Origin: Candidatus Atabeyarchaeum deiterrae
GTDB lineage: Archaea; Asgardarchaeota; Atabeyarchaeia; Atabeyarchaeales; Atabeyarchaeaceae
Assembly: GCA_037310415.1 (NCBI GenBank)
Contig: CP147780.1
Location: forward strand, 584,701-648,700
Direction of reading: 5' to 3'
Length of the DNA: 64,000 bases
In this document: positions 5,780-30,850 of the stretch, in pieces
How positions within the stretch are numbered: position 1 is the first letter of the stretch
How the letters are laid out: each line of letters opens with the position of its first letter
The notes under the pieces: model-generated
Told to the model about the DNA's origin: nothing
Database searches by the model: none
Seen by the model: the letters and a program-made list of their open reading frames with translations, nothing else
Position numbers and translations under genes: made by a program

Positions 5780-5888
5780 ATAATCAGAGGTTGAGCAGGA
5801 CCTTCAATGGTCTTTGGATCACACTACTCCATCTCACCATCAGGAAATATCGAAAACAGCTCCACAGGGGCTTTCTCATCAATTTGCT

Positions 5889-8623: not shown

Positions 8624-8743
8624 TTACTTGTAGCAATTAGCCTTACGCGCATCACCAATAGTCTTAGGATCGCACCTCTTCATTTCACTCTCAGGAAACA
8701 CCGAAAGAAGCTCCCAAGCCAAATCAAGAGTCTGATCAATGCT
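8624..8743 (-). pseudogene. Displaced atpB 3' end (copy B), 38 codons plus stop
   Basis: Reads [39 protein letters not shown]-stop. By hand alignment, 91 of 117 nt are identical to atpB 27600-27716, including a perfect 21-nt block at 8723-8743. Confidence 0.8.
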
Positions 8744-8868
8744 TAGAGGAGTCCGCTTGCTATTTGCGTGAAGCGCGTATCTCAACAACTTCGCAGAGAT
8801 CCAATCGATGTCAACCTTTGAATTTCAACAATTCTGAAGATCTGAGCAACGCATGCCAAAAAAAGACA

Positions 8869-9435: not shown

Positions 9436-9534
9436 CCTGAATCTCCTCTTCCTTCAAAACCAGAACAATTACAGTACTTGAATATGTGCCAAATATATAA
9501 GCATTGACATCGCGTGCGCCATTACGTACGAGCG

Positions 9535-9617
9535 ATTAGCTTTCCGCGCAGCCTCAATAGTCTTCGGATCACACCGCTTCATCTCACCCCCAGGAAACAC
9601 AGATAACGACTCCCAAG
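9535..9617 (-). pseudogene. atpB 3'-end relic (copy C)
   Basis: Reads [28 protein letters not shown], colinear with the atpB C-terminus. About 83 nt, same orientation as the other copies. Confidence 0.7.
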
Positions 9618-9718
9618 ATTCACATCCCAGTCGTGCGCTGGGCACGGATCACTTCTTTTGAAGCATCGACGGAATAGAAGATTTAAGAAGGACGGATGGC
9701 ACTGCTTACAGTGGCTGG

Positions 9719-12439: not shown

Positions 12440-15400
12440 TAGGGAAGGTAGCAGGAGACTGGTTTCGCGTGCTTCTGGAGGACATCCTCTATAACTTGCT
12501 TGTTTTCTTTGTTGGGATACCTGTTGCGGTTCTCTTTTTGTTGCTGGTTTTGTGTATTGCTTTCAAGTCTGCTCGCGGGTCCGTTTCTCACCTCGCTCGG
12601 TGGATGCTTCACGGCTTGGGGGTCTTGACACCGTACATGATCGTGGTGGTATTTGCGCTTGGTGTTGGAATTGCATGTTTCCATGTGCTGGTGTTTAGCA
12701 GTGAGTTGGTGAGGTTAACTCTCAGTTGTGCTGTTACTCTTTTGGTGTCTTACTCGATTCTCGCCTTGGCTGTGATGCATGCTAGGTGGTCGTCGAGTTT
12801 GGTAAAGTTCGTCGCGTTCTCATGTTTCTTCGTTATATTGATGGATGTTCTTGTTGGGTTTCTTGTGAGTGATGATTTGGTTCGGGTTTTGGCTTCTTGG
12901 GGTTCTTCTGTGTTTCTCGGGTGGCTTCTTCTCTATGAGAGGGATACTCTGAGGGCTTCAATGGGGTCCTTGAAACTAAGGATTAGGAAGCCTAAAGGTG
13001 ACGTGGAGCCTACATCTTTTGGCAATAGGGATCGTGAGTTGCCTGCAAATGGGAGCGGAGGAAGGAGTAGCGAGAGTGGGGGTTGTGAGGTTGGGTCAGT
13101 TGAGGTTGTCGGTATCCCTGAGAGTTACTTCTTCGGGAAGGTGGGGAATCGGAGAGACGGAGAAGCCGAGGGGTCCGGAGACGAAGATATTGCGGCTAGG
13201 TTTCGTGGATTCGCGGTGTCCCTGATTGAACATGGGTGCACCTTCGCGTTTAGCCAGGTTTACCATGGGGGTCGTGGGAGGTTCTTCATTCAGTGTAAGG
13301 AGCAAGATAGGTCTAAGCTTGCGCGGTTGGTGGAAGGTGTTGATGCATCTTTACATTCTTGGTTCCCCGATTTTGACACGAAGATACGCTACGGGGATGT
13401 TGAGTCTTCATTGGGTGGCGGGAGGCATGCTTGTGGTTGGGTTTCGAATCTGCCAGCTCCTTCGAGGAATCCTGTGAAGTATATTGCTGAGTTTTTTGTT
13501 CAGAGGAGGCTTACTGGTTCTGTGGTGGTGGTTGCTGAGGGGAGCACATCTTCTCTTTCATCTTTCGTGAAGAGGGGGCGTTATGGGAGGTTGTCGGCTA
13601 AGGCTGCGAGGCAGGAGCAGCAGAGCCCCATCGTGGGAGTGCACAACAAATCCACTATTACCAGTCGATCGAGTTGGGGTGCTGAGAAGGAGTTGAAGCA
13701 TTTAGGGACCGAGCTTGAGAGGTTGGGTTCGAAGCTGCAGGCAAAGTGTTGGATTACACTGACATGTGAGAGCTCCACGAGTGAGGAGGCTGAGATGGAT
13801 CTGGATTTGGTGCTTAGGACATTTGTGGGGGCGTTTAGTTTTGAGGAGGAGCGCCATGAGATGCGTTTTGGGAAGTTTCCCAGGAGGCAGGCTGAGGTTG
13901 TTTACCGCGCTACATCCAAGTTGAGTCCCCGGGGTAGGAGTACGGTTTTGCTGCCTTCTGATTTGGCGTTGTATTTTTGGTTGCCTGAGATGGACTCGGT
14001 TGCTCGGGTGAAGAGGAAAGGCGGTTTCTTAGCTCCTACTGGAGAGGAGGTTGAAGGTGGGGAGATTCTACTTGGTGGGGTTCTTCGCCATGGGTGTGTG
14101 TCGGATGTTGAGGCTCGCCTCACGCTTGGTGATTTGGCTCGCCACTGTTTGGTTGTGGGTTCCACTGGGAGTGGAAAGACGTGGACGACATTGTCCATAG
14201 CGATGGCTTTGCATCGGCTTGGGGTTCCTTTTTTGGTGCTTGATCCTGTGAAGAAGGAGTATAGGTGTTTGGTTGGCGCTGTTCCTGGGTTGCGTGTCTT
14301 CACGGTTGGGGATGAGGGTGTTGCGCCTTTTCGCTTCAATATTCTTGAGGTTCCCTTTGGAGTTAAGGCGCAGAAGCATGTTGACTTGGTGGAGGATGCT
14401 TTGTGTGCTTCTATTGTGATGTATCCTCCTGCGCCCTATGTTTTGCACATGGCTTTGAATCGCACTTACAGGGAACATGGTTGGGACTTGACATATGGAG
14501 AACGTGGTGGAGCTGTGTCTTTGCGTGATTTGAGGCGGAGTGTGAGGGACGTTGTTGTCGAGGAGGGTTACGAGGGTGAGCCGAGAAGCACTATTATTGC
14601 GGCTTTGAATACTCGGTTTGAGAGTTTATCTGTAGGTGGTAAGGGAGCGGCCCTGTGCAGCAGGGTATCCATGTCTCCTCAAGAGTTGATTGCTAATCCG
14701 ACTGTGGTTGAGTTTGGTGAGATGGGGGCGCAGGAGGATCGCGCCATGGTTATCCTCATGGTGCTATCGTCCATCTACGAGTATCTGCAGACACTTGGAC
14801 CAACATCTAAGCCCAGGTGCGCCATCATATTGGAGGAGGCCGGCTCACTCTTCGGCAACGTTGGCGCTAAGGGTGGAGCAGAATACGATTCTAAGGAATC
14901 TAGGAGAAAGGCGATTGAGGTTATTTCACGCATTACCGCTGAGATTCGCTCCCTTGGTGGCATGATTATTTTTGTGAATCAAAGTGCAGTTGGCTTGCCG
15001 CTTGAGGTGACCGAGAATACTTCCACGAAGATTGTGCATCAGGTTGCGGATGATGAGGATGCGGAGAAGGTTGCACGCATGTTCGGGTTAAATGAGGAGC
15101 AAAAACGTGCGCTTGCGAGTCTGGAGGTTGGTAGGCCTGTTATTAAGACGCCAAATGTGAGTCACCCGTTTCAGGTTGAGGTAACTCCTGTGACGAGTTA
15201 TGGGGTTGACCCTACCAAGTTTGTTACGGATGAGGAGTTGAGGAGGTACATGAGGGCGACGTTCTATGATGCTAACCCGCAGTATCTTAAGGCGAGTGTG
15301 ATGACGCCCACTGAGAAGACGCCAACATCGGCTCCGAGTGTGACCGTTTCCGTTGTGAATGGAGGCAGGCTAGCTGAATCAATTGTAGCTCGGGCAGACT

Positions 15401-15680
15401 TTGAGGCAAAGTTTTGTAAATCTGTGGGGAGACATCACGAGGGTGAGGGTGTGAAGGCGGTTGTGAAGCTGCTTATTGCGGAGGCTTCAAGGTATACGCG
15501 GAAACGTAAGGAGGAGGAGACGCTTGCAATGGAGATCCTCAACAGAGCTAATGACAAGTACTGCGTGAACCTGAGACCGGAAGTACGCAGGAGAGTCAAC
15601 GTGTTGGTGAAGAGGGAACTGATGGCTGACCTGCAAACGGCTGGCGGCGTGAGATCTTCCTAGTTGGAGAGTTATATTAG
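12440..15680 (+). other. G+T-biased tract on the + strand (tract 1)
   Basis: Codons of the 1064-aa gene end overwhelmingly in G or T when read by eye. The flanking genes (11728-12303, 15689-17473) are compositionally ordinary. Confidence 0.6.
12469..15663 (+). CDS. Membrane-anchored HerA/FtsK-like P-loop ATPase
   Basis: About 150 aa of TM helices, Walker A VVGSTGSGKTWTT, Walker B AIILEEAGSLF. The C-terminal block FGLNEEQKRALASLEVGRPVIKTP is shared with the 1265-aa paralogue at 30993-34790. GTG start. Confidence 0.7.
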   Translation: MLLEDILYNLLVFFVGIPVAVLFLLLVLCIAFKSARGSVSHLARWMLHGLGVLTPYMIVVVFALGVGIACFHVLVFSSELVRLTLSCAVTLLVSYSILALAVMHARWSSSLVKFVAFSCFFVILMDVLVGFLVSDDLVRVLASWGSSVFLGWLLLYERDTLRASMGSLKLRIRKPKGDVEPTSFGNRDRELPANGSGGRSSESGGCEVGSVEVVGIPESYFFGKVGNRRDGEAEGSGDEDIAARFRGFAVSLIEHGCTFAFSQVYHGGRGRFFIQCKEQDRSKLARLVEGVDASLHSWFPDFDTKIRYGDVESSLGGGRHACGWVSNLPAPSRNPVKYIAEFFVQRRLTGSVVVVAEGSTSSLSSFVKRGRYGRLSAKAARQEQQSPIVGVHNKSTITSRSSWGAEKELKHLGTELERLGSKLQAKCWITLTCESSTSEEAEMDLDLVLRTFVGAFSFEEERHEMRFGKFPRRQAEVVYRATSKLSPRGRSTVLLPSDLALYFWLPEMDSVARVKRKGGFLAPTGEEVEGGEILLGGVLRHGCVSDVEARLTLGDLARHCLVVGSTGSGKTWTTLSIAMALHRLGVPFLVLDPVKKEYRCLVGAVPGLRVFTVGDEGVAPFRFNILEVPFGVKAQKHVDLVEDALCASIVMYPPAPYVLHMALNRTYREHGWDLTYGERGGAVSLRDLRRSVRDVVVEEGYEGEPRSTIIAALNTRFESLSVGGKGAALCSRVSMSPQELIANPTVVEFGEMGAQEDRAMVILMVLSSIYEYLQTLGPTSKPRCAIILEEAGSLFGNVGAKGGAEYDSKESRRKAIEVISRITAEIRSLGGMIIFVNQSAVGLPLEVTENTSTKIVHQVADDEDAEKVARMFGLNEEQKRALASLEVGRPVIKTPNVSHPFQVEVTPVTSYGVDPTKFVTDEELRRYMRATFYDANPQYLKASVMTPTEKTPTSAPSVTVSVVNGGRLAESIVARADFEAKFCKSVGRHHEGEGVKAVVKLLIAEASRYTRKRKEEETLAMEILNRANDKYCVNLRPEVRRRVNVLVKRELMADLQTAGGVRSS

Positions 15681-15688
15681 ATGGTGAT

Positions 15689-17473
15689 GTGGGTCGGGGA
15701 GGATTACTGTATTTGCCAAGGGAGTCTGAAGGGCACGAGCACGTAGAGGATGACGCAGAATCTTCCCTGGGTTCCGATGAACAGGAAGAAGGGAAATGGG
15801 GTGAACTTCGCGAAGAAGCTGAGTTGACGGATGAATCGGCCCTTAGGGAATACGAGGAATCGCTGACAAGTCAGCAAGGGGAGGGGGGAAGAGAAAAAGA
15901 TGCCTCAGAGACCGATGATGAGTCAGTCGCCGTGTCTGAGGAAGAGGAATGGAAGCAATTCGTGGATTCAACTCTCAACGAATATGAGAATTCATTGAAC
16001 GAATCGATAAGAAAAGATGAAGTGGTCAAGGCGACAGAATCACAGGAATCCAGTGCAAATGTGGAGCAAAGAAGCCAGACAACTGAAGGGGAACCCCAAC
16101 AAATCGATGAGCCCACTAAGCGAGCAGAAGTTCCATCAACCGAACCACGACAAGAACCCAACATGGATAGGGATAACGAAGCGGACGGAGTAAAGGTGAC
16201 TGATAAGGTCACGGTGAAATTCGATGAGAATGAGGGCCTTACAATAATCTCTGAGAACTTGAACTATAGGATCGCAACTGTGGAGCATGAGACTATAGGG
16301 GGATTGGAATTCGACAGGTACAAGACTAACATGGGAGAAGAGTTTCTACACATACCTAGTGAAAACAAGTTGATCCCACCCTATGAAACGCCATGGTACG
16401 CATTACGTCCAAACACCGAAGTATATCTTGACCTGAGCTACAAAACTGACCGATTGCTGGAGGCGATAAGCAAGGCGGGAGGAGAAGTGGCGTTTCGAAA
16501 GGAGATGAAGGAAAGGGGCGCAATCTTCAGCAACGGAAATGTATACAGGCATCTGCACCAGCAGAGAGACGGCTTGAGAGCCGACAAACTGATTTCAGTC
16601 CTCAAATTTCTGGGAAGGAATCTCGATGAGCCAAACAAACATATCAGAGCGATAGGACATTGCAGGGCAATAGAAAACCCAAAACTACCATTCAGACTCA
16701 ATAACAACGACGGAGCAAGATTGATGGGAGCAAGGTATTCAGACGGAACTAACTCTGCATCGAAGGGACGTGGACCAAGATTCAACTACGCGAACAATGA
16801 CGCAGGGCAAAGAAACAGGATCGTAGAATCCCTGAAGAATGTTTTCGGTGGGGCAAATATACTCAACAGAGAGTACAACACTGGTGAAGTGGCGAAAGTG
16901 CGTACTTCATCAGACATCGTTGGATATGTATTGATGAGAGCAGGAGCTGTGACAGGGGAAATAGTTGACAAGAACCCACACATACCTGTGCTAATACGGG
17001 AAGGGTCTTTGGAAATGAAACGCGAGTGGCTAATCCAAGCATCTGGTGATGAGGGATACGTCTGGCCACAGAAAGGCAAAGTGTGCATAGGAAGAGCGGT
17101 TGAAGCATCAAGCGTTCTGTCCAAGGAGATGACCGATCGCCTTGATGGAATGAGTTGGCAGGACAAGTTCATAAACAGGAGATTTGTCTGTGGCATAAGA
17201 CCATGCAAGGATCTCCCTGGCGACATCTACGGAGTGGTAGAAGGTCATCCACCTAACCTTCTTTTGGAAGAGAAGAAGATGCTCAGTCATTTTGATATTG
17301 AGGCACGAATGTATCCCATAGAGATGCACAGGGGAAAGTATGGCGACTACTCAGCCCACTGGACCCTACAGACAGAGACAAGGGAAGATGGAAGACGATT
17401 CGCCGAAAAGATCGGGTTCCCCCAAGAAAGAAAACAAAAGAAGGCAGTTTCAGTCCTAAGACTCGACAGGTGA
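15689..17473 (+). CDS. Acidic N-terminal region fused to a two-motif LAGLIDADG-fold domain
   Basis: The first ~165 aa are D/E-rich. The LAGLIDADG-like pair ARLMGARYSDGT and REWLIQASGDEGYV has typical spacing and intervening helices (IVESLKNVFG, LLLEEKKMLSHFDI). Lies 25 nt after the ATPase gene. Confidence 0.55.
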   Translation: MGRGGLLYLPRESEGHEHVEDDAESSLGSDEQEEGKWGELREEAELTDESALREYEESLTSQQGEGGREKDASETDDESVAVSEEEEWKQFVDSTLNEYENSLNESIRKDEVVKATESQESSANVEQRSQTTEGEPQQIDEPTKRAEVPSTEPRQEPNMDRDNEADGVKVTDKVTVKFDENEGLTIISENLNYRIATVEHETIGGLEFDRYKTNMGEEFLHIPSENKLIPPYETPWYALRPNTEVYLDLSYKTDRLLEAISKAGGEVAFRKEMKERGAIFSNGNVYRHLHQQRDGLRADKLISVLKFLGRNLDEPNKHIRAIGHCRAIENPKLPFRLNNNDGARLMGARYSDGTNSASKGRGPRFNYANNDAGQRNRIVESLKNVFGGANILNREYNTGEVAKVRTSSDIVGYVLMRAGAVTGEIVDKNPHIPVLIREGSLEMKREWLIQASGDEGYVWPQKGKVCIGRAVEASSVLSKEMTDRLDGMSWQDKFINRRFVCGIRPCKDLPGDIYGVVEGHPPNLLLEEKKMLSHFDIEARMYPIEMHRGKYGDYSAHWTLQTETREDGRRFAEKIGFPQERKQKKAVSVLRLDR

Positions 17474-17479
17474 GGAAGT

Positions 17480-17788
17480 ATGGTTGATGATAGAGAAATG
17501 GTAGAAATGATTAAGCAAGCATATGAAGAGCTAAAGACCCGAGATATTGGAAAAGAGGAACTACTCGATTGGCTGAAAAGAAACGGTCTGACACTGGAAC
17601 AGGCGTCAATGGCCATCCACCTAGCCATCCAACAGGGTTTAATCCGATTTTGTTACCCACCCTCTGTTTGCGGAGAAGAACCAGTTCCAAGTTACGAAAG
17701 GATCACAGAAGAAGATCTGCTCCCGCCTGAACTACTGGAAGAAATGCGTACAAGAATTTTCGAAGAGAGTGTAGAGCGACGAAAATGA
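17480..17788 (+). CDS. Small helical (possibly wHTH) protein
   Basis: 102-aa ORF starting 6 nt after the preceding gene. No recognisable motif. Confidence 0.4.
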   Translation: MVDDREMVEMIKQAYEELKTRDIGKEELLDWLKRNGLTLEQASMAIHLAIQQGLIRFCYPPSVCGEEPVPSYERITEEDLLPPELLEEMRTRIFEESVERRK

Positions 17789-18054: not shown

Positions 18055-19314
18055 TCATGGGTTCTGTCGCCGCGCTTGTTCAAGCCTCGGATTCCAACAA
18101 GTTGACGGAGGCATATGAATTTCATCAGGAAACCATGCATCGCTCACCATTTTCAACACTTCCTCCTTGGGAAGAGCCCTCGCTTTCATTGAAAGTTCCT
18201 TGTCAACTCTCTTCCTTTCTAGTGAAGCACTATGGAATCTGAAACCCTGTCGGATACAGATGTTTTGCCTCCTCACATTCCTGCGAAACTGTTTGACTTC
18301 TGCATCTGACCAACTGGGATGGATGAAATAATCTTTCGAAGTTTGGGGATAATAGAAGTCGAAGTTGTCATGCAGCTGACTCACCGGTCGATACCTACAA
18401 TCAGTAATCTGGACTTTCCATTCCCAACACTTAAGTCGCTTCTTCTCCATCTCCACAAAAGGTATGTCCCAATTGAAAATCATGAAAATCGATATCTCTT
18501 CGGCGTGATAACTGGCGTTCACCAAGATGTCTAGCTGTTTCTTTATCCGCTCAAATTCATCGTAACCCCAATCCCACGCAATTTTTGGGCTGTCAAACCT
18601 TGCTTTCTTTAGAGCCACTGCCAGTTCAGGCCTCTGTTCAAGTATCTTCCCGTCGAACCCACTTTGAGACTCGCAACGAACTACTCTTCCTTTATACTTC
18701 AACCCAGAGATCTCTGTGAGCAATTCATCAATATGCTCATTCATTAGTAAGTTGTTATCATAGAAGACTAGTCTATTGGAACAGAGCTCACGTTTTATGC
18801 TCTTTTTTGAAGTCCGTTTTGGCTCAAGCTTCCACGTGTAACAGAATTTGCACTGGCGGAGACATCCTCGAGTAGAATGAATGATTTGATAGTCAAGTTG
18901 ATGAGGGTTCTGCCTTACCAGTTTGTAATTGGGCAAACAATTCTCCGCCTTGTTATGAAGACCGACATATGGCTTGACCCGAAATCGCCTACACTTTTCC
19001 TTGAAGTCTTCATTGTTAAAGTGAAGAGAAACGTATATTCCGCCGATCCAGATAACACTTTTTGGATAGGCGTTTCTATAAAACGCAACACTATCCCAGA
19101 AGTATGTGCTCCAATACGTAAACAAGGAAGTTATCCATATCTTATCCGGAATGAAACCGACCCGGCAGTTGCCTATTACCAGTTTTAGCCTCGTTGCCCG
19201 CCCACTTTTCTTAATGTACGTTCCAATCTTCAATAGACCGATCGGTAAGAAGTTCTTATGATTTCTGCTCTTTCTTGGAATTGGGAAATCAGGCTCAACC
19301 AATAGTATTCTCAT
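18055..19314 (-). CDS. Radical SAM enzyme with N-terminal B12-binding-like domain
   Basis: RILLVEP...FLPIGLLKIG Rossmann-like start and CLRQCKFC (CxxxCxxC) cluster motif. Last gene of the five-gene operon. Confidence 0.8.
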   Translation of the reverse strand: MRILLVEPDFPIPRKSRNHKNFLPIGLLKIGTYIKKSGRATRLKLVIGNCRVGFIPDKIWITSLFTYWSTYFWDSVAFYRNAYPKSVIWIGGIYVSLHFNNEDFKEKCRRFRVKPYVGLHNKAENCLPNYKLVRQNPHQLDYQIIHSTRGCLRQCKFCYTWKLEPKRTSKKSIKRELCSNRLVFYDNNLLMNEHIDELLTEISGLKYKGRVVRCESQSGFDGKILEQRPELAVALKKARFDSPKIAWDWGYDEFERIKKQLDILVNASYHAEEISIFMIFNWDIPFVEMEKKRLKCWEWKVQITDCRYRPVSQLHDNFDFYYPQTSKDYFIHPSWSDAEVKQFRRNVRRQNICIRQGFRFHSASLERKRVDKELSMKARALPKEEVLKMVSDAWFPDEIHMPPSTCWNPRLEQARRQNP

Positions 19315-19318
19315 TAGT

Positions 19319-20329
19319 CTACCCTGTCTCCATTCTTCTTGGTATATGAATTCTGATCTCCATCTCCTTGCATAGGCTCAGAAGCTCCTTCGTGAGATGT
19401 TCAACCTTTGAAAGGTCTCTCTTACTGTTCTTCAACTCGTCTCTTTCCTCTCTTGTAATCGTCTGAACCCGCTTCAGAAGGCTTTCAACACCTTTGATGA
19501 AAACAGAATCTGTCATAGGGAATTTTGCCTTAATCTCGTGATGAACCTGTTCTATATCTTCTCGGCCCTTGAAGACTCTTTTCCTAGCATCCTTGTACTT
19601 GTATACGGTTCCGATAAGCCTTACATCCTGGGCTTTTCTTATTGTTCCATCCTTAATTAGCTCAACAACTTTCTCAACAATCTCTGGATCCGCAACCCTC
19701 CGGATTTCCTGAACCGCCGCATTCTTTACTAACTGTTCGAAGTGGCTGTATTTATCCTTCCTCATTTCTCCGTTCTTGACCATTAACTCAACTGCCTCTA
19801 TTTTCTGCGATATTGAAGCAATATTGTCGCCGGCAACAGCTTCTATCTGTTGCAAAGTCATTTTGTCTTCAACCCTCATCTTGCGGAACAGATTTGCCTT
19901 ATCATATGCATCCCACTTAGCCTTTCCCGCGATGTGCTCCGTGCAAAGCAGTCTGTATATTTCTTCTTGAGAAAGCCTCTCTACAATTACATTGCTCTTG
20001 ATCAACGTCCATTTGTCGTCTCCAGTATCCTTGTGGAGATGACGATAACAACACAATCTTGTGTTTCCTTCTAAGACCTCATGATCATATACTAATACGG
20101 GGTTGATTAACCCCCCATCGTTCTCAATTTGATGATACAACTCGTGAGTCGCGTCCCTTTGCCAAAGTTCCTGATCGATTATGTCATCAGTAACCTGTCC
20201 ACCGTGTTCACTAACAATAGTTGCGATTCTGGGATTTCTTGTGTAGTATCTCAATACGTATATGTCCAGCAACTTGTACTCGTATTTTATCTCCTTTCCT
20301 CTTATCGATAGAGCAATTTGATTTGCCAT
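19319..20329 (-). CDS. ParB/Srx-fold protein, DGQHR-like (EGNTR variant)
   Basis: YYTRNPR box, GGLINPVLV...VLEGNTRLCCY. Paralogous to 22192-23364 (shared KAQDVR segment). Confidence 0.65.
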   Translation of the reverse strand: MANQIALSIRGKEIKYEYKLLDIYVLRYYTRNPRIATIVSEHGGQVTDDIIDQELWQRDATHELYHQIENDGGLINPVLVYDHEVLEGNTRLCCYRHLHKDTGDDKWTLIKSNVIVERLSQEEIYRLLCTEHIAGKAKWDAYDKANLFRKMRVEDKMTLQQIEAVAGDNIASISQKIEAVELMVKNGEMRKDKYSHFEQLVKNAAVQEIRRVADPEIVEKVVELIKDGTIRKAQDVRLIGTVYKYKDARKRVFKGREDIEQVHHEIKAKFPMTDSVFIKGVESLLKRVQTITREERDELKNSKRDLSKVEHLTKELLSLCKEMEIRIHIPRRMETG

Positions 20330-20332
20330 TTT

Positions 20333-21829
20333 CTAACCCCCTAAGATCCTGAGCAAGTCAGCTTTCGACAAATAGCTGCGCTTAAATGTAATGCACTCTG
20401 TGTCGCCCAGAGTATATTTCGCGATCAGTTCCTTCTTCTCCAATATCTCATCAGTATATTCATCTATTGTATCTTTAGCGATAATCTTGAAGACCTTGCA
20501 TGGCTTGGTCTGCGTTATTCTGTGGATCCTGTCTTGCGATTGAAGATAGTCATCCATTTTGAAGGTTCGGTCCACATAGATTGCGTTGTTTGCGGAAGTT
20601 AGAGTTAAACCTTCTTTTGCGGCAGCTGGGTTCGCAATCAGCAACTTGCATCGCTCTTCGTTCATGAACTTCTTTACGATGTTGAGACGATCCATAATTG
20701 GAATCTCTCCGAAAAGCATCTGCGCCCCAAATTCCTTGAAACGATTCCTGAGTGTTCTAATGTTTCCAATGAAACTTGTCCATAAGATTGCTTTCTCTTT
20801 TCGCTCCACAACATCACGAACAAGTCTGTTCAAAACCTTGAACTTGCCCGGTTCCTCATTATACTGAATGTTTAACAAGCCTGGGTTGCTAGCGATTTGA
20901 GTAAGTCGGAGTAGTTTAACCAGATAATTGTCTATCTCTTCCTCGATCTTCTCTCCGTCGGAGTTAGAGATCTCATAGTAGAGTTCACTTCTAGCCTTGT
21001 CATAGGCTATTCTTTGCTTAGGCGCAAGTTCGGCGGTTACGTTCTCAAAAGTTTTTTCGGGAAGCTCCAATACATCCTTCGTTCTTCTAATAGAGACTGG
21101 TCTCAAGGTCTCCCTTAACGATTTTAGACTCAATTCGAATTGGCTCATGTCTTGGGCTCCCTTCAAGTCGACCTTGAATCGCTTTTGGAAAGCGTCAAAG
21201 TCGTCTCCAAGTAGCACGCCACCATCCAAGAAATAGAATTGAGACCACAGGTCTTCTGGTCTATTTGCAATTGGCGTCCCTGTGATTATGATCCTCTTTG
21301 CAACAAGACTCCTCAAGGAGATTACAGCTCTTGCTGTCTTCGATTTTGGGTTTTTCATTTTTTGGGATTCATCAAGAACCATTGCGAATCTTCGCTGCCT
21401 CAACAATAGTTCAATGAACTCGGTCTCCTGAATCAGGGATTCGTAGTTGGCTATATAGAAGTGTCCATAGGTTGTAAGCATGCGACCCCGTTGCATTCTT
21501 GAGCCGTCCAAAACTACTGGAAGGAGATTCGAGTGTTTCTCTATTTCGTCTTTCCACATATATAATAGAGACTTCTTACAAATAATAAGCGCACCGTCTA
21601 TCGTTTTCTCCTTCATGTTTCGGCACAGAGCATCGATGACGATTTTGCTTTTGCCCAGACCCTGCTCATCAAACAATGGCACGTCATTGTGAGTGCTGAC
21701 ATAGTCTGTAGCCTCGATCTGATGTTCAAGAGGCTCGGTTTTCGAGGAGAAATCAAATGTGACTTTCTTAATCAGTCTCAACCAACTCCTCAGGAAGCAC
21801 AATGTACGAGACATTAGTAAGTTTTTCAA
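20333..21829 (-). CDS. SNF2 family helicase
   Basis: Motif I DEQGLGKS, motif II VLDESQ, motif VI QSQDRIHRITQ. The annotated start overlaps the upstream gene by 62 nt, so the true start is probably TTG/ATT near 21780. Confidence 0.85.
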   Translation of the reverse strand: MKNLLMSRTLCFLRSWLRLIKKVTFDFSSKTEPLEHQIEATDYVSTHNDVPLFDEQGLGKSKIVIDALCRNMKEKTIDGALIICKKSLLYMWKDEIEKHSNLLPVVLDGSRMQRGRMLTTYGHFYIANYESLIQETEFIELLLRQRRFAMVLDESQKMKNPKSKTARAVISLRSLVAKRIIITGTPIANRPEDLWSQFYFLDGGVLLGDDFDAFQKRFKVDLKGAQDMSQFELSLKSLRETLRPVSIRRTKDVLELPEKTFENVTAELAPKQRIAYDKARSELYYEISNSDGEKIEEEIDNYLVKLLRLTQIASNPGLLNIQYNEEPGKFKVLNRLVRDVVERKEKAILWTSFIGNIRTLRNRFKEFGAQMLFGEIPIMDRLNIVKKFMNEERCKLLIANPAAAKEGLTLTSANNAIYVDRTFKMDDYLQSQDRIHRITQTKPCKVFKIIAKDTIDEYTDEILEKKELIAKYTLGDTECITFKRSYLSKADLLRILGG

Positions 21830-22187
21830 GACCGAGATCGACCATTAAGCGCAACAAGATGCTTTCTTCGTTTCTGGGCACTCCGATTATTAGTTCAAAT
21901 CTCAGTCCGGATGTAGCCCCAACAATATTCGAATAGTCCAGCAGTTGCTCTCTAGTTCTTTCTGACAACAAGTCATCTCCAGTTTTTGCCTCGCCAATGC
22001 ATAGCACCTTGGTTTCCATGTTTATGCCAATTACATCTGGTCTGTGTCTACCTATCCTCGGGGGAACATGCACCGCTTCACCATGAAATGTGTAATACTG
22101 CCCATCATATGCGACTGGAGCATACCCCTCCTCCCGCATCTTTCTGCCTATTAGGTCAACAAGCATTCGGTGCATCCGCGATGGCAT
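21768..22187 (-). CDS. Small PD-(D/E)xK-like nuclease-fold protein
   Basis: 139 aa with RPDVIG ... CIGEAKT, matching the D...(D/E)xK pattern. No other domain. Confidence 0.5.
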   Translation of the reverse strand: MPSRMHRMLVDLIGRKMREEGYAPVAYDGQYYTFHGEAVHVPPRIGRHRPDVIGINMETKVLCIGEAKTGDDLLSERTREQLLDYSNIVGATSGLRFELIIGVPRNEESILLRLMVDLGLEKLTNVSYIVLPEELVETD

Positions 22188-22191
22188 GTCT

Positions 22192-23364
22192 TCAACTCAC
22201 TTCGAACTTCTTAAACATCTCTGCTATACTCGAAATTTGTTTATATAGCTCGAGAATCAGTTCCTTCTTCTTTGGCTCCTCGCCTGCAACAATGCTCCTT
22301 TCCTCTTCTCGTGACATGCTCTTGAGGCCTTCTATACACTTGTTCATGTGTTCGAACAGTCTCGAAGCATAAGCTGGCATAGACAGACTGAGCTCTTCTT
22401 TTGCGGCGGAGAAACCTTCCTCCTTCAGTACTTTGACAATCTCTTTGTTATCAAACATCTTCTTCAGATCTCGAACGTCTTGAGCACGCACGATCTCCCC
22501 GTTCCCAACCCAATCACAGAAGTCTTTGTCTTCAAGCTCGTGTTTCTTCATTCCATCTATGATCTTCTTGCTCTCGTATTCAACGAAATATGAAAACTTC
22601 GTGAATGGATTGTCTCTGCCTGTGTAGCTTGGCAAAAACTGTTCGGTCATGAGTTTGTATGCTTTTATCCATCTTCTGATGTCGACCAACGAAAGTTTCG
22701 TCGTATCCATAAGTCGCCGTTCGCTGTATCCCCTCTTGTCCCATAGTATGTACAGCATTCTGGCTCTCTCGTAGGCTTGCCAGTCATTCTGTGCGCGTAA
22801 ATGTGCTATGAGGCGGATGAAGTTTCTTGCGCGCTCATCGGTGCCCTCTGGAAGGATCCTTGCCTTGATCTTCGTGTATTCCTCTTTCCTTGGGTACTTG
22901 TCTCTTAATTCTCTGTAGATAATCACTCTTGTGTTGCCATCTATGCACAGATATTTCTCACCTTTCTTCATGACCCAGATCATTTCGACGGCGCCACCGC
23001 CAGCCTCGATGCTGCTCTTCAATCTGTTGTATGCGTCCACATTCTGCTGTTTCAAGAAATAGACCAGGGTTTTTTGATTTGTTGTCTGCCCCGCGCTAAG
23101 ATAGTTGTCTCTTGCGTATCCAATTCTGGGATTCTCTTCATCCAATTCGATCTCGTCTATGGGAATATCATCGATTTCGATCTCTTCTGGCACGCCATCG
23201 ATTGGAACTTCCATTTTGTACCGATCCTTTTCCTCCTTTCTCTCACTCGGCGCCAGAAGTACACTTTTGTCATCAATGTCTTCGGACAACTTGTCACACC
23301 TCTTCTCTACATTTACCCCCTCATGAAGTCGTGCGGTGAACCCCCAGTGAGTCTGGCAAGTCAA
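22192..23364 (-). CDS. ParB/Srx-fold protein, DGQHR-like (DGNTR variant), acidic N-terminus
   Basis: IELDEENPR box and YLCIDGNTRVIIY. The start may be the internal Met (MEVPIDG). First gene of the operon. Confidence 0.65.
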   Translation of the reverse strand: MTCQTHWGFTARLHEGVNVEKRCDKLSEDIDDKSVLLAPSERKEEKDRYKMEVPIDGVPEEIEIDDIPIDEIELDEENPRIGYARDNYLSAGQTTNQKTLVYFLKQQNVDAYNRLKSSIEAGGGAVEMIWVMKKGEKYLCIDGNTRVIIYRELRDKYPRKEEYTKIKARILPEGTDERARNFIRLIAHLRAQNDWQAYERARMLYILWDKRGYSERRLMDTTKLSLVDIRRWIKAYKLMTEQFLPSYTGRDNPFTKFSYFVEYESKKIIDGMKKHELEDKDFCDWVGNGEIVRAQDVRDLKKMFDNKEIVKVLKEEGFSAAKEELSLSMPAYASRLFEHMNKCIEGLKSMSREEERSIVAGEEPKKKELILELYKQISSIAEMFKKFEVS

Positions 23365-23602
23365 GCATTCTGGCAGTCCTTTTAGTGTGATCTTGCCAAA
23401 ACATGTCTATATAGATTACGTTACACTTGAGACATTCACAATCCTCAGAAGAGCCTCGCGCCAAATCTATTCTTAGCTGAAACCATTGCAGGGCGTGGGT
23501 TGAATGTCTCGTCGGTGGACCGATCATAGAATCAATAAAGAGACAGAGAGGATCAGGCGAGTCACGTACTTGTAGTGACCGACCCTGTGACTAGCCTCAT
23601 TA

Positions 23603-23652
23603 TCTTAGGATCGCACCTCTTCATCTTACCCTCAGGAAACACCCGACGACAA
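23603..23652 (-). pseudogene. atpB 3'-end relic (copy D)
   Basis: Reads VFPEGKMKRCDPK. About 40 nt core plus a degenerate extension with a 1-nt indel. Same orientation as copies A-C. Confidence 0.6.
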
Positions 23653-24104
23653 CTCTTAGTTCTGCCAACCATCCTTTCCTAAGACAGAATTGCATCAACT
23701 GGATGCAAGTGGTGAACTGCTTGTGTAGAGAAGAGACAAAAAGATGTGTCGAAGTCATCCATACGCTAGGCGCCGATGCTCAGCGAGACATAATGTAGGA
23801 GCATCCTTTATGATCCGTCGATCTCAACGGAAACAACCTAGCATCAGAATCAATGAATTCGCAGAAATGAGTTCTGGACAGAAAGCTATATAGAAGGTAT
23901 TCTATAACAAATAATGACCGCGACGAATGAAAACAGACCAAAAAGAGAATAAAGAAGAAACAATATAGTAGCGCGACGAGCAGCCCAGTTGGTTTAAGCT
24001 CCGAATGGGGGTTAAAATGGGGAAATCAACAAAGAATTAGTGAAAACACACATAAATTAGACAGCTTTTCTTGATGAGAAGTAAGACAGAAAGGGGGTTT
24101 CGCA

Positions 24105-24524
24105 TTGGAAAGACTTCCCAACACTGAACTATTGGCATTAGTTGCAAGCTATCTCGGAACAATAGAAGGGCGAAAGCGCTTTCAAAAGATCGTGTTTCTC
24201 CTGAAGGAAGAGTCCGCGGTTCAATTCACCTATCCTTTCACTTCGTACCTTTACGGTCCCTACTCTTCAAGACTCCAAGATGACATCGACATCCTCGTAC
24301 GAACTGGCAATCTACAGGAAGAAAAGGCTGGTTCTCTTTTCCGCTACAAGATTACCGACCTGGGACGCAAGAATGCTCATCAAATAGAGAGGACATACAG
24401 GCAGCATCTCGCGAAAGATCTACGTGGCCACCTGAAAGACTTACAGCAACAGGACACCGAGGAATTGGTGAACCGATCGAAAAGAATAATGAACAAGAAA
24501 ATCAAACACAACATTTTCGCTTAA
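24105..24524 (+). CDS. wHTH protein, possibly Panacea/SocA (DUF4065)-like
   Basis: KRFQKIVFLLKEE and YLYGPYSSRLQDDIDILVRTG resemble the DUF4065 pattern (from memory). TTG start after GGGGG. Lies 11 nt upstream of the HD gene. Confidence 0.45.
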   Translation: MERLPNTELLALVASYLGTIEGRKRFQKIVFLLKEESAVQFTYPFTSYLYGPYSSRLQDDIDILVRTGNLQEEKAGSLFRYKITDLGRKNAHQIERTYRQHLAKDLRGHLKDLQQQDTEELVNRSKRIMNKKIKHNIFA

Positions 24525-24535
24525 GGCGAGAAGCA

Positions 24536-25870
24536 ATGTTTTGTGACCCTGAACTCAAGATCAGCATCCCATATGAATACGTAAAAGATCCAATTTATGG
24601 CTATATTAGAGTTTATGAGCACGAGCACAAGATCATCGATACCGAGTCGTTCCAGAGACTTAGACGTATAAAACAGCTAGCCGCGGCGCACTATGTATAT
24701 CCAGGTGCGACACACACACGCTTCTCTCACAGCTTGGGCGTAATGCACCTTTCAGGGCTCTTCGTCAAGCAGTTGCTTGAGTCCTGCAAGAATGAGATTC
24801 CAGATGATACTTTTTTGCGCTATTTCTTCTTAATGAGGCTATGGGGTCTCACCCATGATTTGGGACATGGACCCTACTCTCATACTTTTGACAAAGCGGT
24901 GCTTGAACATATGGGGATAAATCATGAATACATGTCCTCGAAGATTGTCGTGGATGACAATATTATTGCAGAAACCATAGAAAAAGATCTTAGCGACTAC
25001 GACATAAGACCTAAAACACTGTCAGAATACTTGGGTAAGACCCGAGAAGAATGGCCAAAGGGAGAGAAACTAGGTAACACACAACACAATGAATCATCCT
25101 TCTATTACGTACTGAAAGGATCTTATAGCACTGACATTATTGATTACTTGCTCAGAGACAATCTCTATACTGGCGCAGGGTATGGAAACTTCGACTGGCA
25201 ACGATTGATCTTATCTTCATGTCTACACGGCGATGAGGTTGCTCTAGACGTTAGAGCTCGTGATACGTTGGACGCTCTCTTGCTTTCGAGATTATTCTCT
25301 TTCAACACAATCTATTACCATAGATGGTCGAGAGCCGCGGATCACGTAATGAGAGTTTTCTTATCAAAAGCAAACAAGAAAATCGATCTGGCTGACTATG
25401 CCAACGATGTCGAGGAATATAAGAAGCTGGACGAGGAAAGCATTCTCCAAATGAGAGAACTCACTGACATCCCCGAGCGAAAAATGTTGCTTGACAGGGA
25501 AATACCCTTCAGAGAGATTGACAGACGCAAGATCCAGCTCTCCTCTGACATAGCGATTCTGGATGAAGATAACTTGAACTCTAAGCTCTCCGAGACATTG
25601 GAAAGCAGAATCCCTAGTGAAGCGTACTTTGTGGATACACCGAATTTGCCTTTGAACCCAATGAGGGATGAGGACGTCTGTATTGTTGACCACTCATCAT
25701 CGCCAACCGCGGTATGGCACGAGCCTGTCAGGAAAACATCTTGGGGAGAAGTACCTTACTCCGTTTGGATAGTACGACTATACCTAGACAAAAAATATGA
25801 AAAGAATGAGGAAGATGTAAAAAGGGCGTTTCAGGATGCTATCACAGGTAAGAAGGGATCACACTTCTGA
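24536..25870 (+). CDS. HD-domain phosphohydrolase, SAMHD1/dNTPase-like (COG1078-type), island copy
   Basis: HTRFSHSLGVMHL and THDLGHGPYSH motifs. Paralogue of 50396-51679. Confidence 0.8.
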   Translation: MFCDPELKISIPYEYVKDPIYGYIRVYEHEHKIIDTESFQRLRRIKQLAAAHYVYPGATHTRFSHSLGVMHLSGLFVKQLLESCKNEIPDDTFLRYFFLMRLWGLTHDLGHGPYSHTFDKAVLEHMGINHEYMSSKIVVDDNIIAETIEKDLSDYDIRPKTLSEYLGKTREEWPKGEKLGNTQHNESSFYYVLKGSYSTDIIDYLLRDNLYTGAGYGNFDWQRLILSSCLHGDEVALDVRARDTLDALLLSRLFSFNTIYYHRWSRAADHVMRVFLSKANKKIDLADYANDVEEYKKLDEESILQMRELTDIPERKMLLDREIPFREIDRRKIQLSSDIAILDEDNLNSKLSETLESRIPSEAYFVDTPNLPLNPMRDEDVCIVDHSSSPTAVWHEPVRKTSWGEVPYSVWIVRLYLDKKYEKNEEDVKRAFQDAITGKKGSHF

Positions 25871-27572: not shown

Positions 27573-29075
27573 CTACGCAGTTGCTGACTGGGACATGTGC
27601 TTATACCTGTTCGCTTTCCTCGCAGCGTCAAGGGTCTTAGGGTCGCACCGCTTCATCTCACCCTCAGGAAACACAGACAACAAATCCCAGGCGAGATCAA
27701 GAGTCTGATCAATGCTACGATCCACATATTCACCTTGAGTGATAAACTTCCGCTCAAACGTATCAGCAAACTTCAAATACGCCTTATCCCGATCACTCAA
27801 AGCCTCCTCACCAATCACAGCAACTAAATCCCTGAAATCCATACCCTCACTAAAAGCATAATACAACTGATCCGACACTTCCCTATGATCCTCACGCGTC
27901 AACCTTTCTCCAGATTTTGTCACACCGATCCCCTCCTTCATCAACCGACTCAAAGACGGACGCGGGTCGATCGGGGGGTATATACCCTTGTGATGGAGAG
28001 CCTCAGAAATAATGAGCTGTCCCTCAGTAATATACCCAGTAAGATCTGGAACGGGGTGTGTGATATCAGAATGCGGCATCGTCAAGACTGGCATTTGTGT
28101 TATTGTGCCTTTTCTGCCTATTATGCGTCCTGCTCTTTCGTATATGCTGGCGAGGTCTGTGTAGAGGTATCCTGGGTATCCTCTTCTTCCTGGGACTTCT
28201 TCTCTTGCTGCGCTGATTTCTCGTAGGGCTTCTGCGTAGTTTGTCATGTCTGTTAGGATGGCTAGGACGTGTAGGTTTTGTGTGTATGCTAGGTATTCTG
28301 CTGTTGTTAGGGCGCATCGGGGTGTTATGATGCGTTCTATTGCTGGGTCGTCTGCGAGGTTTAGGAATAGGACTGTGCGTTCGAGTGCGCCTGTTCGTTC
28401 GAAGTCTTTGCGGAAGTATTGTGCTTCTTCTGCTGTTATGCCCATGGCTGCGAATACTACGGCGAATTGTTCTTCTTTGCCGAGTACTTTTGCTTGGCGT
28501 GCTATTTGTGCGGCTATGCGGTTGTGTGGTAGTCCTGCTCCGCTGAAGAGTGGTAGTTTTTGTCCGCGTACGAGTGTGTTCATTCCGTCTATGGTGCTGA
28601 TTCCTGTTTGGATGAATTCTCGGGGGTATGCTCGTGCTTCGGGGTTTATTGGGCTGCCGTTTATGTCCCACATGTCTTCGGGTATGATTGGTGGTCCGTT
28701 GTCTATGGGTTCGCCTGAGCCGTCTAGGGTTCTGCCGAGTATGTCGGTTGTTACTGGGATTTTTAGTGGTTCGCCTGTGAATTGTGCTTGTGTGTTTTTG
28801 GTGTCGAGTCCTGTTGTGCCTTCGAAGACTTGGACGATGGCTTTGGTTTTGGTGATTTCTAGGACTGTGCCTCTTCTTTTTTCTCCGTCTGGTGTGGTTA
28901 TGTTGACGAGTTCGTTGTATCCTACGCCTTGGACGTTTTGGATGATGATTAGTGGTCCTGTTACGTCTGAGATGGTTTTGTAGGTTCTTTTGGCGTAGAG
29001 TGCTGCTGCGGCGATGTGGGCGGCTGTGGCTGTTTTGGTGGCGCTTTCTTGTTTTTGTTGTTTGGTTGTTGCCAT
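27573..29075 (-). CDS. atpB: A-type (archaeal V-type) ATP synthase subunit B
   Basis: Colinear AtpB sequence ([73 protein letters not shown]). Has a 28-aa T/K/Q/A-rich N-terminal extension. Confidence 0.95.
27600..27716 (-). repeat. atpB 3'-end copy A (functional gene end; putative att-like site)
   Basis: Homologous to copies B, C and D. The shared core of about 40 nt encodes [13 protein letters not shown]. Confidence 0.7.
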
Positions 29076-29494: not shown

Positions 29495-30850
29495 ATGTTT
29501 ATATTTCAGTGCGTATTTTCTTTTTCGCGAATTGGCATAAGAGGAGATTTCACTTGTGCCGTTCGTTTTTCCGATTTGAAAAGGGTTGATTTTGGATCAG
29601 AGTGGGTGGCTTTGCCGAAGCGTAGTCAGGGGCGCAGGGTTAACGTTTGGGTTGCGTTGGCAGTTGTGTTGTTGGCTGTTAACATCGGTCAATTTGCGTT
29701 TTTTGTGTGGTTGCGGCCGAGTGTTCCGGTGGAGGATTCACCCATCCAAGTGGGGGACGTTACTGGTGTGAATAGGGCGAGTTTCCTTGGGAAGACGGTT
29801 ACGTTGGAAGGATACTTCGTTGGTGTGTTGGGGGGGAAATCGTTTCTCACTGCTGGTTTGGATGATTTTAGGCAGAATAGGATTCTTCCGTTGACGAGGT
29901 TTGTTACGATTGGGGGTGACCTTCCGCTGGATCTTTTGAATCAGACGGGTAGCCGCATCTTGCTGAAGGGGGTAGTTGGGATTGATGATTTGAATGCTAA
30001 TTTGACGCGTATTTCGTATGTGTCGCATAAGGTCGTTGAACCAAGTGCGCAGAATTATGCGCTGTGGAATTGGGATAAGCAGATTAGTATTCCTACGCCT
30101 CCGTTTCTGCAGCCGCATAAGTATGCGGTGTTGATGAGTGGGGGGTGGGATGCGGAGCACGCGTTTATGCGTTACTGGAATGATTTGAAATTCATGTTTG
30201 CTATTCTGACTGGGTATGGTTACAGTGGAAGTAATATTTTCGTTCTCTACAAGGATGGCGTTCCTGAGGATGCAGGGATATTTGTGAACGCTTCTTGCAC
30301 GTATGCGAATGTCGCTGCTGCTTTTTCGACTCTGCAGGCGAAGATGACGGATCTTGATGACTTGTTCATCTATACGACGAATCATGGGAACCCGGCGCTC
30401 TGCTTATGGAATCATGACGTACTGATTCCGTCTGACTTGGCGTCGATGTTGCAAGGTATCACGTGCCATGTCATGATCATCTTGATGCAGCAATGTTACG
30501 GGGGGGCGTTCGTACAAGATTTGAGTGGTTCGAACCGGGTGATTATGACCGCGGCGAATTCGAGTCAGTACTCATGGGCTTGCGACAAGGAAGGACCTTG
30601 GGATGAGTTTACGTACCATTTCATGGATGCGATGCGAGGGATGACCTTGATCGCAGACCCTGTGTTTGCAGACTACAATAGTGATGGGAAGGTATCCATG
30701 GTCGAGGCTTTCAATTATGCGCAGAGCATGGATAGTTGCGCTGAAATCCCCCAGTTTGATGATAACGGAGATGGCGTCAGTCATTCGGGATGGATGACCG
30801 TCGGCGGGGATGGCTATCCTGGTGGGCTCGGAGCTACGACGTTTCTGTAG
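29495..30850 (+). CDS. Membrane-anchored peptidase C13 (legumain-like, clan CD) family protein
   Basis: TM helix VWVALAVVLLAVNIGQFAFFVWL. Catalytic His-Gly FIYTTNHG and Cys IILMQQCYGG in clan-CD order. Ca-binding-like ADYNSDGKVSMVEAFNYA. Start uncertain. Confidence 0.7.
   Translation: MFIFQCVFSFSRIGIRGDFTCAVRFSDLKRVDFGSEWVALPKRSQGRRVNVWVALAVVLLAVNIGQFAFFVWLRPSVPVEDSPIQVGDVTGVNRASFLGKTVTLEGYFVGVLGGKSFLTAGLDDFRQNRILPLTRFVTIGGDLPLDLLNQTGSRILLKGVVGIDDLNANLTRISYVSHKVVEPSAQNYALWNWDKQISIPTPPFLQPHKYAVLMSGGWDAEHAFMRYWNDLKFMFAILTGYGYSGSNIFVLYKDGVPEDAGIFVNASCTYANVAAAFSTLQAKMTDLDDLFIYTTNHGNPALCLWNHDVLIPSDLASMLQGITCHVMIILMQQCYGGAFVQDLSGSNRVIMTAANSSQYSWACDKEGPWDEFTYHFMDAMRGMTLIADPVFADYNSDGKVSMVEAFNYAQSMDSCAEIPQFDDNGDGVSHSGWMTVGGDGYPGGLGATTFL

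Follow-up and report, generated by a model that had tools for sequence, protein, structure and literature searches.

A radical SAM protein shared by unrelated operons and its possible role in a probable five-gene defence cassette of an Asgard archaeon

Results

A conserved block of five genes

The window analysed here is a 64,000-nucleotide stretch of the Candidatus Atabeyarchaeum deiterrae genome (contig CP147780.1, positions 584,701 to 648,700 of the forward strand; assembly GCA_037310415.1). Positions are those of the window unless another locus is named. Our subject is a set of five genes on the - strand, here called A to E. An earlier note on this DNA had read them as a tightly packed candidate operon for DNA modification and defence. 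All five open reading frames (ORFs) were found, and every motif quoted in that note occurs in the translations and is invariant in family alignments. Gene A (22192–23364) encodes a protein of the ParB/Srx superfamily. It has 390 amino acids as listed, with a conserved core from around M51 at 23214, and its translation contains EENPR, IDGNTR and RAQDVR. Gene B (21768–22187) encodes a 139-residue putative PD-(D/E)xK nuclease with the motif RPDVIG...CIGEAKT. The product of gene C (20333–21829; 498 residues) is an SNF2-family ATPase/translocase containing GLGKS, DESQ and QSQDRIHRITQ. Gene D (19319–20329; 336 residues) specifies a ParB/Noc-like paralogue of A with NPR, LEGNTR and KAQDVR. Gene E (18055–19314; 419 residues) encodes a radical S-adenosylmethionine (SAM) enzyme with a B12-binding-type N-domain and the cluster motif CLRQCKFC (CX3CX2C). 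Gaps of 4, 3 and 4 nucleotides separate A from B, C from D and D from E, respectively. B and C overlap by 14–62 nucleotides, set by which TTG or ATG start C uses; the true start is probably at 21781–21814. A TATATA element (23408–23413, - strand) lies ~45 nucleotides upstream of the listed TTG start of A and could, on our reading of the sequence, serve the operon as an archaeal TATA box.

The order ParB-like protein, ~139-residue protein, SNF2 protein, ParB-like protein, radical SAM protein recurs in at least nine further loci. The hosts are Thermoplasmata, other archaea, Actinomycetota, Ignavibacteria and Nitrospirota. Thus the block is conserved in archaea and bacteria, a point on which the earlier note had staked its reading. 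Since the gene order recurs and the motifs are invariant in family alignments, the five-gene set is more than a chance assembly. Two metagenomic copies (L001/L002) stand beside OLD/AAA_15 genes. The same order is seen in L015, L022, L043 (Thermoplasmata), L047 (Actinomycetota), L084 (Ignavibacteriaceae) and L104 (Nitrospirota). It is also seen in L102, which has 80% nucleotide identity to the window and likewise adjoins atpB. Gene E of L102 is fragmented in the source gene calls; tblastn shows that it is present. A divergent cassette (L103, 5098–10600) has a D protein of 25% identity and a 536-residue radical SAM protein, and adjoins Nmad3 and PDDEXK_4 genes. Overall, homologous blocks have OLD/AAA_15, Nmad3 and toxin-antitoxin genes for neighbours. 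Mobility of the block is independent of the island that holds it in the window.

Two ParB-like proteins, an SNF2 motor and a putative nuclease

Besides its NPR and DGNTR boxes, protein A has a C-terminal half that is helical. Residues N78, P79 and R80, and G143, N144, T145 and R146, are invariant in the homologue alignment. Hence, the boxes highlighted in the earlier note stand. Its acidic N-terminus does not, as the first ~50 residues vary among homologues and the conserved protein begins near M51. The N-terminal part of A matches the PADLOC models PDC-M38A (2.7e-7) and PD-Lambda-5_A (3.8e-5). A profile built from seven orthologues matches SbnI (5uje) with an E-value of 1.7e-4 and ParB chains weakly. 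Proteins A and D are paralogues (phmmer, 5e-15).

Protein D has no Pfam match. Its profile, built from 33 homologues, matches ParB (4umk) at 1e-4 and Noc (7ol9) at 1e-3, and aligns the EGNTR segment with the GERRxR box of ParB. Residues N32, P33 and R34, and E87, G88, N89 and R91, are invariant. The AlphaFold2 model of D (predicted local distance difference test score, pLDDT, 89.8) retrieves ParB, Noc and KorB with Foldseek at E-values of 2e-5 to 1e-3. Several of these entries were crystallised with CDP or CTPγS. In outline, D comprises an N-terminal ParB domain of the nucleoside triphosphate (NTP)-binding type, a helix-turn-helix (HTH) and a helical C-terminal domain. The family contains ~95 clusters at 90% identity. 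The ParB fold is therefore confirmed for D by profile and fold searches, and supported for A by the SbnI profile match. Both proteins have the fold and the GERRxR-equivalent box of the ParB/Srx superfamily.

The SNF2 assignment of protein C held up. Both lobes were matched by Pfam over curated cut-offs (PF00176 SNF2-rel_dom, 2.2e-37; PF00271 Helicase_C, 3.7e-11). The protein is an SNF2 core with no fused nuclease. In PADLOC it matches ZorD (2e-56), DpdE (5e-38) and DrmD (4e-18), each over the helicase part of the model only. For protein B, the motif P50-D51...E66-A-K68 is invariant in six orthologues, in agreement with the earlier note. The family comprises 270 clusters, all of ~139 residues and with no Pfam domain. 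Searches of Pfam, PADLOC, NCBIfam and PDB profiles brought B no match, PDB giving chance-level scores only, so the putative PD-(D/E)xK assignment is taken from the motif.

A basic radical SAM protein family found mainly in anaerobes

The cluster cysteines of E (C151, C155 and C158) are invariant in 58 homologues and in a set of ~80 sequences. The window copy itself matches the Pfam radical SAM model PF04055 below threshold (E-value 0.011) and has no match to the B12-binding model PF02310. Across the family, PF04055 matches 53/58 members, whilst PF02310 matches 33/58 with a best value of 1.2e-13. Hence, the radical SAM call of the earlier note stands, and the B12-like N-domain it proposed is seen by Pfam in those 33 relatives and not in the window copy. 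The AlphaFold2 model of E (pLDDT 91.1; predicted template modelling score, pTM, 0.87) has a Rossmann N-domain. The top fold match, and the only one of full length, is AprD4 (6fd2), with an E-value of 6.6e-9, a template modelling (TM) score of 0.60 and 13% identity. AprD4 is a sugar 1,2-diol dehydratase that is not known to use cobalamin or to carry this cofactor in its similar N-domain. Protein E has the features of the radical SAM superfamily and its fold also matches MoaA, NifB, LIAS and viperin.

A profile of E from the 58 homologues retrieved nothing meaningful from all PDB sequences (best E-value 0.36), and no NCBIfam model matches. Because neither NCBIfam nor any solved-structure sequence matched, E is not tied to a known metabolic enzyme. 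The low identity to AprD4 points the same way, and the reading in the earlier note is not contradicted. A fold search against viral structures found generic COG1032 proteins only, at ~12% identity. One homologue is named 'pyruvate-formate lyase-activating enzyme' by the Joint Genome Institute (JGI).

Within the N-domain, H19, S63-L64 and G91-G92 are conserved. Their spacing, in our judgement, resembles the classical cobalamin motif DxHxxG...SxL...GG. The C-terminus is a basic, family-specific extension with conserved C296, C306 and C353. Protein E has 74 Lys and Arg against 47 Asp and Glu (net ~+27), and ~14 Arg or Lys positions are conserved. Judged from composition, such strong basicity would fit a polyanionic substrate.

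The family is compact and highly conserved. Searching 5.8 billion proteins brought up 2110 relatives, and a scan of 185,579 species genomes placed E in 179. In an exhaustive profile search ~30 full-length clusters at 50% identity scored above 350 bits, with a tail of 182 at E-values below 1e-30 and 2258 below 1e-3. Carriers include methanogens, anaerobic methanotrophs (ANME-1), Methanoperedens, Bathyarchaeia, Thorarchaeota, DPANN, Chloroflexota, Omnitrophota, Elusimicrobiota and the candidate phyla radiation (CPR). Almost all of these lineages are known as anaerobes.

Gene E ends six types of operon

We clustered the neighbouring genes in 82 E loci, 74 of which had enough upstream sequence to be typed. 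Of these, 69 fall into six partner types. Gene E is the last gene of the operon in nearly all loci examined, and a co-directional gene ends just upstream of it in 68 (median gap 5.5 nucleotides). Type 1 is the ParB/SNF2 set of the window (six loci). Type 2 (16 loci) has DrmA, DrmB and DrmC (PADLOC 1e-85, 2e-24 and 3e-15), together with a DrmE-like protein (Pfam DrmE_C, 1e-13) or an 1100-residue protein. Type 3 (21–24 loci) consists of PbeA, a small protein, PbeC and a PbeD-like protein, with PADLOC values of 1.5e-235 and 3.5e-180; these operons contain a 67-residue protein. Type 4 (~20 loci) pairs a MORC-like GHKL protein (HATPase_c_3) with a protein of ~330 or 505 residues. The remaining types have few loci each. 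Type 5 carries a type-I-like N6 methylase, an S subunit and a HerA/mad8-like ATPase, and type 6 a DndB/DpdB-HEPN fusion (DpdB, 1.2e-25). No methyltransferase or Dnd genes were seen in the DISARM-like and Pbe-like operons of types 2 and 3, and Dnd and Ssp genes were absent from every E locus examined.

Two effector sets can share one E gene, as they do in L006 and L035 (GHKL with Pbe) and also in L049, L051 and L055 (types 4 and 5). Identity between E proteins is 0.54–0.63 within partner types and 0.53–0.56 between types. The window protein is 70% identical to E of the Pbe plus GHKL locus L006 and 65% identical to E of the DISARM-like locus L011. Because the partners are unrelated, because one E may have two sets and because identities are alike within and between types, we conclude that E behaves as an autonomous, exchangeable unit. 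An adaptor domain common to the genes directly upstream of E was sought with hhalign and rejected, as none is found between types except for the pair of neighbour clusters c10 and c13. We also rejected D and E as an obligatory modification pair, since E occurs in other operon types with no ParB-like partner.

Some E loci also carry DNA methyltransferases, so E is not always a stand-in for a methylase and might elaborate or complement methylation. In L070 (8412–11215, Methanobrevibacter) the gene directly upstream of E encodes a C-5 cytosine methylase (PF00145, 3e-64), and E has no further partner set there. This arrangement is a hint that methylated cytosine may be what E cooperates with or acts upon.

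Two further loci were observed. In L058 (9980–12639, Thorarchaeota) two tandem E-family genes lie by genes for a DUF87/HerA-like and a 337-residue protein (c20/c21). The c20/c21 pair also accompanies E in L045 and may be a seventh partner type. In L003 (12692–21308, Methanococcoides sp. FTZ1) an operon of DISARM-like genes and E lies by two Cas1 genes and a family-B DNA polymerase gene, an arrangement that is casposon-like. A weak Pfam match on one partner protein (PF28273, 'PP_RS20740') led to a paper on furfural tolerance that holds no functional information.

Phages carry E largely alone

Homologues of E occur on 12 IMG/VR contigs. Identity over the best segment is 25–48%, and 37–48% for 11 of the 12. 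The same number keep nearly all of the invariant residues checked. The full partner set is on none of the 12 contigs; L086 has a PbeD-like gene directly upstream of E. Elsewhere, E is beside the terminase large subunit (L087, L095) or primase (L088). In L092 its neighbours are an exonuclease and a radical SAM protein matching a 'DNA repair photolyase' phrog, and in L094 a DNA methyltransferase (phrog_116, 2e-97). By analogy with orphan methyltransferases, solitary phage copies of E would fit the pattern of orphan anti-restriction modification genes.

Relation to known systems

Consistent with the earlier note, no named system of this composition was found in PADLOC, NCBIfam or the literature searched, and that literature held no description of the E family in defence. 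Ophion also has a radical SAM protein, but is a different system (radical SAM, PHP and phosphoribosyltransferase, PRTase). No link to E could be made for arCOG00938, which has been noted in archaeal dark-matter islands.

The closest comparisons are with systems that join modification to restriction. Like the cassette in our reading, Dpd (7-deazaguanine modification and restriction) has a ParB-family protein (DpdB), a DNA modifier and SNF2-type helicases in its restriction part; C matches DpdE, and a DndB/DpdB-HEPN fusion partners E in type 6 loci. However, none of the five window proteins matches DpdA, DpdB or DpdC, and no tRNA-guanine transglycosylase (TGT)-like or preQ0-pathway protein is among them. 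The candidate modifier is instead a radical SAM enzyme, and C matches the helicase part of DpdE only. DISARM, MORC-type and MADS-like systems work with a DNA-modifying partner, and canonical class 2 DISARM carries DrmMII in the terminal slot. About 16 sister loci have DrmA/B/C and a DrmE-like gene followed by E, and so resemble class 2 DISARM in their logic of modification plus helicase and nuclease. The window cassette differs, with no DrmA, DrmB, DrmC or methyltransferase match and a weak match of C to DrmD (4e-18). It is an effector set parallel to DISARM and not DISARM itself.

Similarly, in 21–24 sister loci PbeA-PbeB-PbeC-PbeD is followed by E, in the slot described for Dnd or methylase genes. 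The five window proteins match no Pbe, Dnd or Ssp gene; Pbe partners E in other loci only. Pbe/CxC (CxC-ABC ATPase-DndE) systems partner Dnd phosphorothioation or cytosine methylases (PMC10853773). PD-lambda-5 is described by its authors as a compact restriction-modification and abortive infection system that includes a methyltransferase (PMC9519451). Over their N-terminal ~90 positions, the PD-Lambda-5_A models match protein A, and this match would again tie a ParB-like domain to a DNA modifier. Yet this match covers the ParB-like N-domain only (E-values of 4e-5 to 3e-3), and the window proteins include no methyltransferase. Zorya type I is brought in by ZorD, an SNF2 helicase with an Mrr-like nuclease that is the best PADLOC match of C. 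In contrast to Zorya, ZorA, ZorB and ZorC are not matched, and B matches neither the nuclease region of ZorD nor any other model. Finally, E resembles AprD4 and may resemble class B enzymes in having a Rossmann B12-binding-type N-domain ahead of a radical SAM barrel with CX3CX2C, but sits in defence operons and not in antibiotic or cofactor biosynthesis. The ParB/SNF2/PD-(D/E)xK effector set is itself, in all likelihood, an undescribed defence architecture. The cassette would work like a modification-restriction system of the Dpd or DISARM kind and belongs to none of them.

The island at atpB

The operon lies in an island at atpB, as the earlier note had reported. Using blastn against the window, we found five copies of the atpB 3' end. 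These are the native copy (27610–27716) and copies at 23603–23655, 9536–9615, 8637–8743 and 5804–5868. All have the same orientation, 77–87% identity and a conserved core of ~50 nucleotides. Two still translate to peptides like the AtpB C-terminus (ORFs 8624–8788 and 9469–9645). The segment holding the cassette is bounded by the attachment-site-like copy at 23603–23655 (- strand), just upstream of the operon, and the copy at 9536–9615. Elements seem to have integrated one after another at the atpB 3' end, leaving a tandem array of island segments downstream of the gene; we identified no integrase. The cassette of L102 is at the same atpB site with different neighbours. Hence, the atpB 3' end looks like an integration hotspot.

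Within the cassette segment (9.6–23.6 kb), the stretch 12469–17788 begins with a gene for a 1064-residue membrane HerA/mad8-like ATPase with a hydrophobic N-terminus. It is followed by genes for a 594-residue acidic protein and a 102-residue protein, both with no family matches. The three genes may together make up a module of this segment for transfer or defence. The neighbouring segment encodes, at 24105–25870, a 139-residue protein matching PADLOC PDC-M19A (1e-10), LmuC and DarG. Directly after it is an HD plus HD_assoc_2 protein (PADLOC dGTPase, 1e-8), the dNTPase-like gene of the earlier note. The pair may be a separate two-gene defence candidate. Another repeat-bounded segment has, at 6982–8621, two overlapping + strand ORFs of 282 and 264 residues, to which the earlier note gave the label AbiE.

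The A-type ATPase genes atpA (34928–36724) and atpB (27573–29075) are separated by a 5.8-kb insert, so the ATPase operon appears interrupted. The insert encodes a 1265-residue HerA/DUF87 (mad8-like) ATPase (30993–34790, - strand) and a Peptidase_C13 protein of the legumain/caspase fold (29495–30850, + strand). A tRNA at 38960–39066 was matched by Rfam (107 nucleotides, 53 bits) and not by ARAGORN in bacterial mode. As the match of 107 nucleotides exceeds the 71-position model, a tRNA intron is suggested. Both the A-type ATPase genes and this tRNA fit an archaeal host.

Discussion

Our preferred interpretation is that the block is a horizontally mobile, modification-type system against viruses or plasmids, in which E marks DNA and A to D restrict. 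We put the probability of this at roughly 50%. A defensive role for the cassette, however it is achieved, we hold with considerable confidence; that E specifically marks DNA is, to us, an even bet. Briefly, E would be a cobalamin-type radical SAM enzyme that acts alone to place a covalent mark on host DNA. In its simplest form the mark would be a C-methyl or like group that radical chemistry adds to a base or sugar. Proteins A and D, as paralogous ParB-like and probably NTP-gated DNA binders, would load on DNA. The SNF2 motor C would then translocate, and the small PD-(D/E)xK protein B would cut DNA that lacks the mark. Proteins B and C could be a split helicase-plus-nuclease unit. In this scheme we infer DNA as the substrate of E, the nature of the mark, self-protection and which proteins form complexes.

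A self-marking role for E is the most economical reading because E occupies the slot of a modifier, serves dual effector sets, shows no co-evolution with its partners, is basic and occurs as solitary copies in phages. Conservation of the block, its place in a variable island with HD/dGTPase-like and LmuC/PDC-M19A-like genes, and the OLD/AAA_15, Nmad3 and toxin-antitoxin neighbours of related blocks also favour the preferred interpretation. The earlier note had suggested radical-SAM-dependent DNA modification with a helicase and nuclease arm. This gains support from the position of E at the end of DISARM-like and Pbe-like operons that have no methyltransferase or Dnd genes, and from the solitary phage copies; the function itself would follow from these patterns only by inference.

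Several observations weigh against E as a marking enzyme. The best fold match is a diol dehydratase, and no solved class B methylase is among the top 50 fold matches. No stretch of protein E varies as a target-recognition domain would, which leaves any sequence specificity unexplained. An N6_N4 methyltransferase (c14) is beside six E loci, including the type 1 locus L015, type 5 loci carry type-I-like M and S genes, and in L070 the partner of E is a cytosine methylase. In addition, the nuclease role of B is read from a sequence motif.

The first of these points leads to the rival that survives best, namely that E acts on a nucleotide or other small molecule. By radical dehydration of a ribose or sugar diol, as in viperin or AprD4, it would make a chain terminator or cofactor that acts beside the helicase and nuclease proteins, and not a DNA mark. 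Viperin is also in the list of fold matches, below AprD4. The very high conservation of E, unbroken by a variable specificity region, is usual for enzymes with small-molecule substrates, and the conserved basic residues could bind a triphosphate. Furthermore, ParB-family proteins bind CTP, the viperin substrate. However, E shares just 13% identity with AprD4 and ends DISARM-like and Pbe-like operons in which the usual modification gene is absent. Prokaryotic viperins are not known to be embedded in helicase-nuclease operons. Solitary phage copies of E by DNA methyltransferase and terminase genes are also hard to square with a host antiviral metabolite. We regard a small-molecule substrate as unlikely.

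Alternatively, E could act on DNA other than as the primary self mark, by hypermodifying a methyl mark, by reversing or repairing lesions in the manner of spore photoproduct lyase, or by damaging invader DNA directly through radical chemistry. The adjacent methyltransferases in L070, type 5 loci, c14 loci and phage L094 are compatible with this, as are the basicity of E and the 'DNA repair photolyase' phrog neighbour in phage L092. Yet in most loci our motif scan picked up no methyltransferase. Every partner set has its own nuclease or helicase, which would make a radical 'nuclease' superfluous, and spore photoproduct lyase is not among the sequence or fold matches listed for E. Such a role seems improbable, somewhat more so than a small-molecule one.

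The earlier note had also offered partition or maintenance of the integrated element as an alternative, to which transfer may be added. The two ParB-like proteins, one with a ParB N-domain and HTH, bring this to mind, as does the membrane HerA/FtsK-like ATPase that neighbours the block in its integrated segment. Against this, the block travels independently of the island, and its five genes recur in unrelated contexts with no HerA-like gene. The adjacent ParA-type ATPase of a ParABS system had no match among the ORFs scanned around the operon, where HerA/DUF87-like ATPases are the only ATPases nearby. Moreover, SNF2, PD-(D/E)xK and radical SAM proteins are not partition components, and the other partners of E are bona fide defence modules. 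We consider partition, maintenance or transfer very improbable.

We give equally little credence to the idea that the target of E is a partner protein or small peptide, which it would modify or activate in the way of a glycyl-radical activase or of a maturase of the kind that makes ribosomally synthesised and post-translationally modified peptides (RiPPs): B12-type radical SAM enzymes are common in peptide maturation, JGI names one homologue as an activase and Pbe-type operons encode a 67-residue protein, but phage copies are solitary and E has no common protein substrate because partner proteins are unrelated between operon types. Indeed, PbeB-like small proteins belong to CxC-ABC/PbeABCD systems, for which no E-type enzyme is listed among the components (PMC10853773).

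Returning to E as a DNA-marking enzyme, modification-based immunity is known to use SAM methyltransferases, phosphorothioation and 7-deazaguanine. That the mark made by E is a new DNA chemistry is a tentative proposal, which we hold at slightly less than even odds. In the same tentative spirit, the E family may include the first radical SAM, and probably cobalamin-dependent, writer of an epigenetic self-mark on genomic DNA. The mark might, although we lean a little the other way, be of a new kind, such as a methyl group on an unactivated carbon of a base or deoxyribose. It would then be read by many restriction machines, among them this ParB/SNF2 set and the DISARM-like, Pbe-like and MORC-like sets, and viruses of anaerobes would copy the E gene to escape them.

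The DNA-mark idea is directly testable, because the cultured Methanococcoides sp. FTZ1 (CP195121) carries a sister system of the DISARM-like type. If correct, it would explain DISARM-like and Pbe-like operons with no known modifier. With a portable radical SAM module behind at least six effector architectures, DNA epigenetics and restriction-modification biology would gain a new chemistry. The idea would also point to a DNA modification that has escaped detection in methanogens, ANME, Bathyarchaeia, Asgard archaea, CPR and other anaerobes, and in their viruses.

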